From Microthyrium microscopicum (taxonomy: Eukaryota), in assembly GCA_010405405.1 (NCBI GenBank), contig MU004239.1:1240001-1304000 (forward strand): DNA of 64,000 nucleotides, given 5' to 3'. Every line of letters starts with the position of its first letter. Within the stretch, counting starts at the first letter, position 1. Below, in pieces: positions 2,264 to 6,685 of this stretch. Position numbers and translations under genes: made by a program. The notes below the pieces were generated by a model. That model saw only the letters and a list, made by a program, of their open reading frames with translations. It searched no databases and had not been told where the DNA came from.

Positions 2264-3766
2264 ATGCATCAATCCAACCTGCTACCCATTATATCTTTAT
2301 TCGCCTACCTTGGCATATGTTCTCCAACTCCGTCTTCCTCTTCGAATCTTGAGGTCAAAACTGATAGTGGTGTGCTTCATGGCTTCATCAATCAAGTAGC
2401 TCCTCATGTTCAACAATTCTTGGGCGTGCCATTCGCTCAACCCCCGATCGGATCTAGACGATGGCTACCACCTTCGAGGTTCCGGTCCAACTCATCCTTC
2501 AATGCTTCTGACATAGGCCCTGCATGTCCCCAAATCCCAATTGCGGATCAGGGAAACTCGAGTGTGTATGCTCCACTTGGAGGCAACCAGACCGAGTATT
2601 TTCCACCATCAATGGGGCCTTTCAGCGAAGACTGTCTGACACTGAACGTATGGGCACCCAGCAACTCCAAGAAGAATCTACCAGTGATAGTCTTCTACTT
2701 TGGAGGAGGCTTTGTCCAAGGAGGAACCAACGCGCTCTATTTTAATCCCCAATCATGGGTCGAACGAACACAGAGTCATATCGTGGTCACGCCAAACTTC
2801 AGATCTAATATATTTGGTTTCCCAAATGCTGCCGGGCTAGATGAGCAAAATCTCGGCTTGCTCGATCAACGCGTATCCTTGGAATGGATTCGAGACAATA
2901 TTGCCAATTTTGGTGGAGACCCATCGAGAATCGTTGTTTGGGGTCAAAGTGCCTCCGCGATTGCCCTAGACTTTCTCAATTTCGCATATCCGATGGACCC
3001 CATCGCCTCTGGAATGATCTTAGACTCCAGCACCGCGCTTTTCCCATCAAGGGGCTCGCAAACACCAGACACAGCCCATTCAAACTTCACAGCCGTTGCT
3101 GCGGCGCTCGGCTGCAAAGACCCATCATCTCAAATCGACTGTCTACGCAACTCATCATGGCAAGACATTGAAGCTGTACTACAAGCAGACTCAAGTCTCA
3201 AGTTCGTCACAGTTGTCGATGAGAACATCGTTTTTTCCAACTACACCCAACGCTACGAGCTAGGCGCCCTATCATCAATCCCAGCCATCATCGGGAGCAA
3301 CGAGCACGAATTCAACGAAGGCATCCCGTACCCACTAGGCCCACTGCTCAACCAGACTGGTTCTGACGAGATTACGAATTCCACGTTCCTCTGCACAGCA
3401 GCTCTTACATCTCGATTGCGGGCATCAGAATCTCGGCTCACGTACCGATTTAGATATGATGGTAACTTCTCTAACATATCACCATCTGCCTATCCCGGTG
3501 CATACCATGCGTCGGAGTTGCCGCTGTTTTTTGGAACTGCTGATCTTCATGCTCCTTCCACGGCATATGAGAACAAAGTGAGCCGGGCGTTGCAGGACTT
3601 GTGGCTTGACTTTGCTACAGACCCTAAGGGCGGGCTTGCTAAAGCTGGTTGGGGATCCTATGGGGATGGTAAAGCTGTGTTGCTTGGTGGTGCTGATGTT
3701 CCAGTACGGGAGATAGAGCTCTCTCAGCTTGAGGGGGTGTGCGGCAGTGTTACGATCAAAACATAG
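2264..3766 (+). CDS. Secreted type-B carboxylesterase (alpha/beta hydrolase)
   Basis: Signal peptide; FLGVPFAQPP, SEDCLTLNVW, GGGF oxyanion loop, NLGLLDQ, NFGGDP, nucleophile GQSAS, acid E (GSNEHE), His (AYHASEL). Confidence 0.95.
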   Translation: MHQSNLLPIISLFAYLGICSPTPSSSSNLEVKTDSGVLHGFINQVAPHVQQFLGVPFAQPPIGSRRWLPPSRFRSNSSFNASDIGPACPQIPIADQGNSSVYAPLGGNQTEYFPPSMGPFSEDCLTLNVWAPSNSKKNLPVIVFYFGGGFVQGGTNALYFNPQSWVERTQSHIVVTPNFRSNIFGFPNAAGLDEQNLGLLDQRVSLEWIRDNIANFGGDPSRIVVWGQSASAIALDFLNFAYPMDPIASGMILDSSTALFPSRGSQTPDTAHSNFTAVAAALGCKDPSSQIDCLRNSSWQDIEAVLQADSSLKFVTVVDENIVFSNYTQRYELGALSSIPAIIGSNEHEFNEGIPYPLGPLLNQTGSDEITNSTFLCTAALTSRLRASESRLTYRFRYDGNFSNISPSAYPGAYHASELPLFFGTADLHAPSTAYENKVSRALQDLWLDFATDPKGGLAKAGWGSYGDGKAVLLGGADVPVREIELSQLEGVCGSVTIKT

Positions 3767-4103
3767 ATTATGTAGGAAATATTAATAGAAATGTTTTAGA
3801 ATTGTTCAGGGTCCATCGAATTTATGAATTGATTCTCGTTCTTGCCTCTTATACTTTTAAGCCTGAATTCATGTTTAGCTTTCTTTATGTCGCTGATCCG
3901 ACATCTCTAGAAAGCTCGTCGAATCGACTTTTAGGGTTCTTAGATATATGCTAGAAAATGCAAGTGTAAACAGCAACCGCCGAAATCAAGATTTGTTGAT
4001 ATCATTAGAGTGTTCATCATCGCCAGCTTAGTCTAGCAAAATTCCTCAACACCGCGCCATATCCATATCCTACAACAAGGGGTATCAAAACAACCACCAC
4101 ACA

Positions 4104-5024
4104 TCAAAACCAAGCCAGCGTCCACAACGCCGGCAAATGCGGCCACCTCTCCTGCCACTCCGCCAATATCTCCGGCACACTCTCATCAAAGCCGTCCCTC
4201 GCCTTCCCCTCAAACGTCTCCTCCCCCACCCTTTCAATCTCCCTCCTCGCAGCCGCATTCAAACTATTCGCCAAATCCAAAATCGCCTGCCCACCCACCA
4301 ACGCCTCCTCATGATTATCCTTAATATCCACATTAACCACATGCACCGGCCTATTCAACGGCGCACCCCTATTCCCCAAATCCTCCACCACCGCATCCCA
4401 ACACCGTTCCTCGCACGTGATCACAATATCCACCACCCCGCTCTCTGTGCCAATGGATCCGCGGTTCTGTTTCTGTTGAGACGAGACGCGGGGCACGCCG
4501 ACGGGCCAGTCTTGCCAGCGCTCTGGACCCCATTTTACGTGCCGGTTGCGGTCGAGCATGGGGAGGAGGCCGTTTGCGCGGTATAGGCGTGTGTCTTTGG
4601 TGGCGAGCTCGGTGTACATGGCGTCGTAGGAGGTTACGTTGAAGTTGTAGACGTTTGGTTGGGTTATGGTGGGGCCGGGGAGGCGGACGAGGGAGCCGGT
4701 GCCGAAGGAGAGGACGGGGTAGGCGTTAAGGGCGAGTTGGAGGTGGGATTCCATTGATCTGGGATGGTTTTAGTATTGAGGTTATATTGCTGGTTGAAGG
4801 AGGAGGTACCTGTTATTGTTGCTGGCGCAGACGGTGCAGAATTTTAACTTGAAGCCGTCGTCTTGCTGCCGTGGTGGTGAACCTGGGGGTGTTGTTGATT
4901 CTACCATTGCTGTGTCATTTGATGGTGTTGGGTCTGTTGCTGGCGGTGGGGGAGGGGGTGGAGGAGTTGGAGTTGCTGCTGCATCGTTCGCTGCTGATGA
5001 CCTCGTGCGACGCCTAGGATCCAT
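4104..5024 (-). CDS. SSU72: RNA polymerase II CTD phosphatase Ssu72
   Basis: [16 protein letters not shown] active-site motif split by an intron (~4809-4759); [29 protein letters not shown] motifs. Confidence 0.97.
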
Positions 5025-5171
5025 TTTGAGAGTACTTTGGAGTTGGAAAGTGTCTTCAGGCTGCTGCTAGCCGAGACAAAGGACGGGAGGATATGGGACG
5101 ATGCAGCTATATTTGAAGAAACAGTTAGATAGGTCAAACAGTCAATGAGAATGATTCAGAGTGGAGGTAGT

Positions 5172-5254
5172 AATCAGATTTTTAGCGTATATGGTAATTT
5201 GTTTGGTGTCATCACAGTGAATCGGATAGCTCCAATATGTTGATCATCATAAAA
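5172..5254 (-). ncRNA. Box C/D snoRNA in the SSU72 5'-UTR intron (5292-5107), with guides complementary to 18S rRNA helix 18
   Basis: C box ATGATGA 5250-5244, D' CCGA 5225-5222, C' GTGATGA 5215-5209, D CTGA 5177-5174. Antisense elements TATTGGAGCT, AATTACC and ATATACGCTA match conserved 18S GGUAAUUCCAGCUCCAAUAGCGUAUAU. Host intron is GTACGT...CTAAC...TAG. Confidence 0.8.
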
Positions 5255-6685
5255 GAAAGGATAGTTGATATGAGTTCTCTACAGTCACGTACCTTGAATG
5301 AAGATGAGAAGAAAAGGTTGTATTAAGATAGAGTCGACCGCGAAGGCCCAAGCTACATGAGACTAGCTTTTAGAAATTCAACAAGGGAAGCGATGAAATT
5401 TGTGAAGGTATCAAAGTGATACTGGATAAAAACTGAAGATGGTTGGTGGTTGGGTGAAGCTTGAAGAAAGCTAAGCCAAAACAAGAAGACAAAAGAATGT
5501 GGCGGCTTAGTAAGAGTAGATTACGGTAGGGCCCTCTTGCCGTGGGACCAGACTTAGTCACTTAGGCCAGGATGAGACTGTGGAACAATTCAAATTAACT
5601 GGTCCAAAAATGGCGTGGCTATTGTTACTACGTGCGTGCATTGGGCGCTGAACCAAGCGCATACCTGTTACCACATTGATCAGATGTGACATGTATGTCG
5701 AAAAGATCCAGTTTTGATATAAAGATAAGAGTATAGAAGAAGCGACGATGCAAAATGAGGCCAGAAAGACCATCACTAACAAAATAATAGAGAATAGGCA
5801 GCTGAAAATAAGAGGAAAAGCGCGCAGGTGTAAGTAGTCGTGGAAAGGGCGTTTATGGTGAAACAATGGACTATTATTTTTAGCAACCAATAGAGTCTGC
5901 TGATTTCATGTGGAGTGCCCAAGCAGGAGAGAAGTCGCATGGCCACACGGATCGGTTCCCAGGCCGCACTCGTGAAATGGTTCGTTCCATGTGTTTTGTT
6001 GTCTGATCACAAATTGGTAGAAGTCCCGATTTATCCTGGATGATTGCTGACAGAGTTGTGGATACAGGAGACTCTTGGTAGATAGAAAGTATATCTGGGG
6101 GCCAAGCGCCAATTGCTTAGTGGGTAGTTGCACCTAAAGTCTAGACAGTCAAGACAGTCAAAGCCGGGGTACGGTATTTGATGGAGCGCAAATAATAAAT
6201 ATATCGAGGCTCAAGTTGAGAGGCCATGGGTCAAAGCAGATCGTCGACAAGAAATGGAAGTTGGAGGCTCAAGTTCATTCGAATGTCCTGGCTTCAAAGA
6301 GGCAAAAGGCAAAAGGCCTAATACAAGTCAAGTCCAACTTGGGAAGGAACGACACAATAACGTCCTGGTCGTTGCTGCCACCTTTATTCTTGTGTAGTGT
6401 GTAGTGTGTACCTTCCAAGTTCCATCTCTGTGTACGGTTGTCGCAAGTCGCAACTGCACTTTTCTAACCCAGACCTCCACTTCCACTCCCTCTCTTTCTC
6501 ATCCTGCCTGCCCTTTACTTCCCTTCTTCTACCTTCACCATCTCTACCAACTGCCTGCTCAATCACCTATATACCTCTCTCTTCACTTCTCTATTCCCTT
6601 CATTCCCTGCGGGCCTTCTTACTCCCATATAATACTCTTGCCCAAAGCCCCAGCGGCTATTTACACCCAAATAATACACACAACC

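Follow-up and report, generated by a model that had tools for sequence, protein, structure and literature searches.

Does the non-coding intron upstream of the SSU72 start codon in Microthyrium microscopicum carry a small nucleolar RNA (snoRNA), and if so, what would this RNA do and has it been described before? The question stems from a prediction made from the sequence alone (henceforth the original prediction) for a stretch of 64,000 nucleotides of contig MU004239.1 (assembly GCA_010405405.1, positions 1,240,001 to 1,304,000 of the forward strand; henceforth the window). It placed a box C/D snoRNA in a 5'-UTR intron, with three antisense elements directed at one short stretch of helix 18 in 18S rRNA, and saw in it a novel RNA that would either guide a lineage-specific methylation or act as a chaperone. 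All coordinates below are positions in the window, and 18S positions follow yeast-like numbering unless stated otherwise.

A spliced intron in the 5' UTR of SSU72

The gene was recognized from an open reading frame on the minus strand (4104-4754) that matches the Pfam family Ssu72 with an E-value of 3.4e-66. Its exons were defined with a transcript-like contig of 1400 nt from X1, the sole public run found to cover this stretch, the kind of which is a guess on our part (contigs were compared over positions 4000-6000). The three pieces of this contig are the exons given in Table 1. It omits exactly 5107-5292 (186 nt) and 4759-4809 (51 nt), both of which are bounded by CT..AC on the plus strand and thus by GT..AG on the minus strand. 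A contig from which two genomic GT-AG introns are missing has the pattern of a spliced transcript and, by joining 5106 to 5293, it confirms that a non-coding intron is spliced out upstream of the SSU72 ATG, as had been predicted. On the minus strand the larger intron starts with GUACGU at 5292, contains CUAAC at 5128-5124 and ends with UAG at 5107. The spliced coding sequence from the ATG at 5024 corresponds to 289 amino acids, with the residues CASNNNRS spanning the junction; given this start codon, the 186-nt intron lies inside a 5' UTR of 482 nt. The X1 contigs give no cover inside the intron (bins 5139-5272), an observation that says nothing about the snoRNA.

Anatomy of the snoRNA

All the snoRNA features are located on the minus strand (Table 1); the original prediction had given no strand. 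The complete set of C, D', C' and D boxes that it described is there, with the variant CCGA as D' box. General features of C/D snoRNAs are all found, i.e. a box C of the type RUGAUGA near the 5' end, a box D CUGA near the 3' end and an internal D'/C' pair. The spacer from box C to D' (18 nt) contains the antisense element UAUUGGAGCU, D' and C' are separated by 6-7 nt (UUCACU), and in the 31 nt from C' to box D the motif AAUUACC abuts AUAUACGCUA, which is followed by 5 nt and then by box D. Divergent D' boxes are known to be active, according to the portions of van Nues et al. 2011 (PMC3116282) used here. No terminal stem was evident in the minimum free energy fold of the modelled 85 nt. Downstream, box D is 45 nt from the branch site CUAAC and 67 nt from the 3' splice site.

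Table 1. Features of the snoRNA and of its host gene SSU72 in the window.
Feature	Position	Strand	Evidence
Box C/D snoRNA, ~85 nt	5171..5255	-	Match of covariance model R1 plus weak generic Rfam C/D matches; mature ends modelled
Box C, AUGAUGA	5244..5250	-	Sequence
D' antisense element, UAUUGGAGCU	5228..5237	-	Perfect complement of 18S 585-594
D' box, variant CCGA	5222..5225	-	Sequence; CUGU, CUUA or CUGA in relatives, in the same register
C' box, GUGAUGA	5209..5215	-	Sequence
AAUUACC, possible accessory element for the 5' flank	5193..5199	-	Complement of 18S 576-582 (7-mer)
AUAUACGCUA, accessory (extra base-pairing) element	5183..5192	-	Perfect complement of 18S 593-602
Box D, CUGA	5174..5177	-	Sequence
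SSU72 5'-UTR intron, snoRNA host	5107..5292	-	186 nt; contig junction and splice signals
SSU72 first exon, non-coding	5293..5692	-	Contig piece
SSU72 second exon, with ATG at 5024	4810..5106	-	Contig piece and sequence
SSU72 third exon, stop at 4104-4106, and 3' UTR	4056..4758	-	Contig and Pfam

The snoRNA is an orthologue of Neurospora crassa CD30

The RNA turned out to have a published counterpart. Table 1 of Liu et al. 2009 (BMC Genomics 10:515, PMC2780460) lists CD30 of N. crassa, 84 nt long, cloned as cDNA and positive in northern blots, with the printed accession EU780954. Its predicted target is 18S-Cm584, through a D' guide with 12/0 pairing, and no homologue in yeast, fission yeast, plants or human is given for it in the portions of the article considered here. 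Supplement 4 shows the guide UUAUUGGAGCUGU before a D' box CUGU, drawn against 18S CAGCUCCAAUAG; in the pairing diagrams of the same work the N. crassa 18S rRNA reads CGGUAAUUCCAGCU and CAGCUCCAAUAG. The N. crassa numbers are 3 below those of yeast (Nc Gm559 and yeast 18S-562 being the same site), so that Cm584 is the same cytidine as C587.

A comparison of the window with the printed CD30 sequence, made by eye only, revealed a common 5' end through box C, UAUUGGAGCU equally far from D', the C' region UGAUGACA, AUACGCU in the D-side region and AUCUGAU at the 3' end. The two RNAs thus have in common their length (84 vs ~85 nt), box order, the element UAUUGGAGCU and the predicted target, as well as a C' box followed by ACA, AUACGCU upstream of box D and no second canonical guide. 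They differ in the D' box (CCGA in the window vs CUGU), in the D'-C' spacer (6-7 nt in the window vs about 26 nt, hairpin-forming, in N. crassa) and in the accessory elements, which are longer in the window (10 nt plus the 7-mer). We conclude that the window snoRNA is the orthologue of N. crassa CD30, and that both the RNA and its predicted target were already described in 2009. The novelty claimed for it is therefore gone: the original prediction had itself allowed that a described family with the same target would remove it, and CD30, with the same D' guide, is such a family.

In the portions of the 2009 article considered here, methylation mapping covers only the sites of CD11 and CD29, and the CD30 site is a predicted one. 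The literature searched for Neurospora or Aspergillus yielded no RiboMeth profile of a filamentous fungus, and CD30 is not named in the main text of Canzler et al. 2018.

Relatives in metagenomes and a covariance model

The Rfam comparison proposed with the original prediction gave nothing above gathering: there were no matches in the whole window at the gathering thresholds of Rfam 15, in which the CD30 family is missing. In E-value mode (up to E=10), positions 4800-5600 gave seven matches, all of them below gathering. The best was to snR61, at 26.8 bits against a gathering threshold of 45, with similarity in the boxes only, and membership in that family was rejected.

Relatives were sought in metagenome contigs with a pattern derived from the window (box C, 3-12 nt, the 10-mer, 10-40 nt, C'), which matched at least 119 loci. 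A stricter expression retained 30 loci among the matches listed, from which six (L001, L040, L045, L068, L075 and L107) were dropped as coding-like and without the D-side features, as judged by eye. The family considered here thus comprises, among the matches listed, 24 loci with 21 distinct sequences. Aligned, these 21 relatives show box C and the guide (which the search had fixed), then GUCU, C' and a conserved U/A-UACGC core; by eye, the core UACGC was counted in N. crassa CD30 and in 15 of the 21 relatives among the matches listed. Three of these relatives (L021, L023 and L110) carry the canonical CUGA as D' box. One further locus, L119, has 23 consecutive nucleotides in common with the printed CD30 sequence (guide, D' and the start of the spacer, compared by eye), and thereby links the metagenomes to the published RNA.

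A covariance model (R1), built from the 21 relatives among the matches listed with the window excluded, matched 5173-5252 on the minus strand with 33.4 bits and an E-value of 1.4e-9, a score that is partly high by construction because the relatives had been fished with a window-derived pattern. This was the only R1 match in the 64-kb window, both strands included.

SSU72 is a recurrent host of the family

In their genomic setting the two RNAs would seem to part ways, since N. crassa CD30 is called intergenic in PMC2780460, where intergenic C/D snoRNAs are counted as independently transcribed, whereas the window snoRNA sits in a spliced 5'-UTR intron of SSU72. We used the window Ssu72 protein in tblastn searches against the 24 family loci among the matches listed. 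The main Ssu72 exon follows on the same strand in all 11 listed loci with at least 1196 nt of downstream sequence; identity is 66-71% over 216-219 residues in ten of them and 43-49%, in pieces, in L021. Among the shorter listed loci (76-321 nt downstream), the first coding exon was matched in 7 of 13, and a Ssu72 match was absent in the six short loci L046, L078, L102, L108, L110 and L113. Altogether SSU72 lies downstream in 18 of the 24 loci among the matches listed, and a different gene was identified in none.

The intron signals recur as well. A 5' splice site found by expression precedes box C by 38-70 nt in 16 of 22 sequences (the window and the relatives among the matches listed), and most of the remaining listed sequences have, by eye, GUAAGG, GUAAAU, GUGAGA or GUAGUA in its place. 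After box D, a CURAY branch site at 40-66 nt and a YAG at 66-93 nt were present in 18 of the same 22 sequences. The exon after the intron in L021 opens with the codons for ICASNQNRS, so the intron is within the coding region there; it sits just before the active-site exon.

These positions suggest that CD30, rather than being a gene of its own in N. crassa (where SSU72 is NCU03114, pph-10), probably travels within the first SSU72 intron, as it would across many filamentous fungi. No paper that presents SSU72 as the host of a snoRNA was found among the titles and abstract openings searched, though one may exist, and in the portions of a Ssu72 review used here (PMC10830811) the term host gene appears for HIV only. 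The same review describes Ssu72 as a phosphatase needed for the termination of independently transcribed snoRNAs; this role offers no mechanism for an intronic one, and the link stays a curiosity.

A more ambitious reading of this residence takes it as old and functional, in that the snoRNP would tune the splicing or the output of SSU72 and the RNA would additionally act as a chaperone in the folding of helix 18. Its basis is that the residence is kept where Ssu72 is only 66-71% identical to that of the window, and about 45% in L021. If it were true, snoRNP assembly on the intron would tie how much of a snoRNA-biogenesis factor is made to ribosome synthesis, and the chaperone role would stem from pairing in several parts over 18S 576-617. 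We consider this combination unlikely.

Pairing with helix 18 of 18S rRNA

The 18S reference was not taken from this species but from fragments of other eukaryotes present as contaminants in bacterial assemblies. A published 18S primer site, scanned over the contigs, located 48 such loci, and the same scan of viral contigs located none. All six of the contaminant loci tested were Rfam SSU_rRNA_eukarya, and the context relevant here reads GGTAATTCCAGCTCCAATAGCGTATATT in 38 of 40 usable cases. Around the C of AGCUCC the 18S stretch is GGUAAUUCCAGCUCCAAUAGCG.

A comparison with 1499 nt of 18S (L128) shows two 10-nt stretches of the snoRNA to be perfectly complementary, namely the D' element and the D-side element of Table 1, the targets of which overlap by 2 nt (593-594). 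The same comparison gave the 7-mer AAUUACC as a third complement, on the 5' side. Matches elsewhere in the fragment were also found for six further snoRNA 7-mers and for one 8-mer and, as 7-mers match 18S by chance, AAUUACC is kept only as a possible element; AAUUAC recurs in L051, L053, L078, L096, L112 and L021. Hence, of the three complements originally proposed, the two 10-mers stand firmly, and the 7-mer is present at a level that, taken alone, is that of chance.

The register of the D' element agrees with the original prediction, as the fifth nucleotide upstream of D' (a G, snoRNA position 26) pairs with C587, the C of AGCUCC. So does the spacing on the other side, where the D-side element had been considered 3 nt too far from box D: G595 pairs with the eighth nucleotide upstream, 3 nt beyond the +5 position. 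The calculated duplex energies in the window are -15.7 kcal/mol for the D' element and -14.5 kcal/mol for the D side, the latter reached by none of 1000 shuffles of the D-side region. With only 10 bp, the window guide is shorter than those of the relatives because the two nucleotides adjoining D' are unpaired.

Another snoRNA acts next to this site. According to the portions of PMC2780460 considered here, snR77/Nc CD24 guides 18S U578 (Nc Um575). This RNA, which carries GGAAUUACC, is directed at the adjacent helix 18 stretch GGUAAUUCC, but it is a different snoRNA: its target lies 9 nt upstream, and its gene is part of a snoRNA cluster.

Complementarity as extensive as this (two 10-mers and a 7-mer over 27 nt of 18S) is unusual and raises the possibility, also present in the original prediction, of a folding chaperone that adds no methyl group but, through the tripartite pairing over 576-602, holds open the 3' strand of helix 18 while 40S assembly is at an early stage. 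The non-canonical D' box of the window would agree with such a role, and methylation of C587 is so far a prediction. However, the same cytidine falls at position 5 in the window, in N. crassa and in 21 of 21 relatives among the matches listed, a constancy to be read with the search in mind, in which the guide element was fixed by the pattern and the distance from guide to D' was left free. Moreover, accessory pairing of this type accompanies methylation (PMC3116282, in the portions used), and chaperone and guide roles are compatible with one another. A chaperone that does not methylate thus appears quite improbable to us, and we retain the D' element as a predicted guide.

D-side complementarity shifts along the rRNA

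The nucleotides adjoining box D are A/U-rich and unconserved across the 22 sequences (the window and the relatives among the matches listed), which argues against a canonical D-guide target, be it in 25S rRNA, snRNAs or tRNAs. All 22 D-side regions nevertheless have, among the matches listed, a perfect complement of 5-12 nt within 18S 591-614, in several registers: UACGCU(AU) pairs with 591/594-599, (AA)UAUACGC with 595-603, UUAAUAUAC with 597-605 in the L003 group and (ACAA)CAACUUUA with 603-614 in L012. The gap from this element to box D is 5 nt in the window and ranges from 3 to 14 nt over the 22 sequences (relatives among the matches listed), so that position 5 is not taken by one and the same nucleotide throughout.

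Taken one by one, 9 of the 22 D-side regions (relatives among the matches listed) pair better than their shuffles (p<=0.03; 0.003 for the window), and the remaining 13 do not stand above them (p 0.065-0.47). Summed over the 22 sequences (again with the relatives among the matches listed), the neighbourhood scores 161-167, the global maximum of all 46-nt windows of the 18S fragment, compared to 128 for the next non-overlapping window and a mean of 104 (SD 16), although this statistic overstates independence since the 22 sequences are related. The shift in register from one subgroup to another speaks for selection on the ability to pair with this part of the 18S rRNA.

Elements of this kind have been described in yeast. 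Following the portions of van Nues et al. 2011 used here (PMC3116282), extra base-pairing elements measure 4-11 bp, are often found in the second guide region of snoRNAs with one guide, are not adjacent to the D box, sometimes overlap the guide by 1-2 nt and stimulate methylation up to five-fold; the term accessory guide is that of van Nues and Watkins 2016 (PMC5389607). In the portions of these two articles considered, CD30 does not appear. As in yeast snR75 and snR13 (PMC3116282), the rRNA complement in the window directly flanks the target and occupies the unused second guide region and, as is typical for extra base-pairing snoRNAs, the element is not adjacent to box D and its target overlaps that of the guide by 2 nt. 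Unlike in snR75 and snR13, both flanks of the target may pair in the window, where a stimulation of methylation is predicted by analogy. By this analogy the D-side elements fit the concept of extra base-pairing, which is itself established.

The original prediction had noted a resemblance to the vertebrate U54 guide; in a rival reading, the D-side element directs 2'-O-methylation of G595 with a non-canonical spacing. SNORD54/U54 is, we assume, the vertebrate guide for 18S Gm644, and G595 presumably corresponds to human G644. The antisense region of SNORD54/U54 covers the same 18S stretch as the window D-side element, the 10-mer of the window includes G595 and, in L091, a 6-nt UACGCU ends 3 nt before box D, which puts G595 at position 5. 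Against this, the window spacing breaks the +5 rule, with G595 at position 8, the gap to box D is variable (3-14 nt over the 22 sequences, relatives among the matches listed), and the register drifts in the relatives such that the element misses G595 altogether in several of them (597-605 in the L003 group, 603-614 in L012). There is also no similarity at the level of covariance models, as SNORD54 gave no match up to E=10 in the Rfam search, and no U54 homologue is given for CD30 in the portions of PMC2780460 considered. The resemblance is therefore not supported, and we regard a U54-like guide as very unlikely.

A decayed or unexpressed C/D-like sequence, or intronic motifs brought together by chance, would suit a locus that exceeds no Rfam threshold and for which a stable RNA in this species is only presumed, yet we see hardly any room for it next to four intact boxes, a single match in 64 kb (E 1.4e-9) of a model made from relatives among the matches listed, a position in the first intron of SSU72 kept in 18 of 24 loci among the matches listed, and an N. 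crassa orthologue that was cloned and northern-positive (PMC2780460, in the portions considered).

Proposed mode of action

The reading that we prefer, and hold to be likely as a joint explanation, is that of a CD30 orthologue released from the SSU72 intron, with a predicted D'-guided methylation of C587 and a D-side accessory clamp. The snoRNP would assemble on the C/D boxes within the intron of the SSU72 pre-mRNA; once the intron is spliced and debranched, exonucleolytic trimming would halt at the snoRNP and so free a presumably stable snoRNA. Its 10-nt element upstream of D' would then pair with 585-594, in the 3' strand of helix 18, and fibrillarin/Nop1 positioned at C'/D' would 2'-O-methylate C587 (C584 in N. 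crassa). The region upstream of box D would not be a second methylation guide but would provide extra base-pairing to 593-602, on the 3' side of the target, perhaps together with pairing of AAUUACC to 576-582 on the 5' side. Such extra pairing could stabilize the short guide duplex and compete with the folding of helix 18, and it may stimulate the modification. A D' guide for a lineage-restricted methylation, assisted by accessory pairing, as originally put forward, is thus the best functional reading, and its intron is confirmed; as a discovery, it is not new.

Significance

As the family and its predicted target were published in 2009 and the principle of accessory pairing is established, the locus has little discovery value. 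The additions are small: the conserved place of the family upstream of SSU72, and an accessory pairing that recurs in shifting registers. There is also a gain for annotation, as the CD30 family is not represented in Rfam 15. For the family itself, CD30 provides a clear natural case in which accessory pairing persists while its register moves along the rRNA, next to a cytidine (Cm584/C587) that adjoins the 530 loop of the decoding centre and at which methylation is predicted.

Spacer architecture and a possible additional contact with 18S rRNA

The spacer between boxes D' and C' exists in two forms among the CD30-family sequences compared. A long spacer with a GC-rich hairpin (of the GCCUGC...GCAGGC type; columns 36–70 of alignment A1) is found in nine relatives (L051, L053, L078, L096, L112, L091, L108, L034 and L119) and also in the printed sequence of N. 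crassa CD30, whereas the snoRNA in the window and the remaining 12 relatives carry a short one. Directly after box C', RNAduplex pairs an ACCAA/AACAA segment with UUGUU of 18S rRNA (about positions 608–612) in an extra 5-bp helix, which may be an additional accessory contact, as predicted with 18S sequences of other eukaryotes. CACAA occupies the matching place in many relatives, and the relative at locus L012 has a 12-mer complementary to 18S positions 603–614.

The eukaryotic 18S sequences were found in at least 48 contigs (L120–L167) of bacterial or archaeal species-representative assemblies and MAGs, and all six of those tested were assigned to SSU_rRNA_eukarya of Rfam. These contigs are contamination of the assemblies that hold them.

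Coordinates of features (window positions unless stated)
Feature	Position	Strand	Evidence or detail
ACCAA/AACAA segment	5200–5208 (snoRNA 48–56)	minus	RNAduplex
SSU72 5' UTR pieces	5025–5106, 5293–5692	minus	
Carboxylesterase-family gene	2264–3766	plus	Pfam COesterase, 1e-74
Second contig of public run X1	5791–6000		245 nt, depth 5.6 (low)
snoRNA-bearing stretch of L021	1550–1631 of locus, and downstream	minus	

Host gene and its surroundings

In the distant relative L021, whose Ssu72 is about 45% identical, the intron carrying the snoRNA falls within the SSU72 coding region, preceded by a very short exon and followed by one whose first codons encode the active-site motif ICASNQNRS. In the window, the carboxylesterase-family gene is convergent with the 3' end of SSU72, and the second X1 contig maps upstream of where the transcript of SSU72 begins. 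Once spliced, the 5' UTR of SSU72 is 482 nt long and contains five upstream ATGs; this length and these ATGs could mean that Ssu72 is under translational control.
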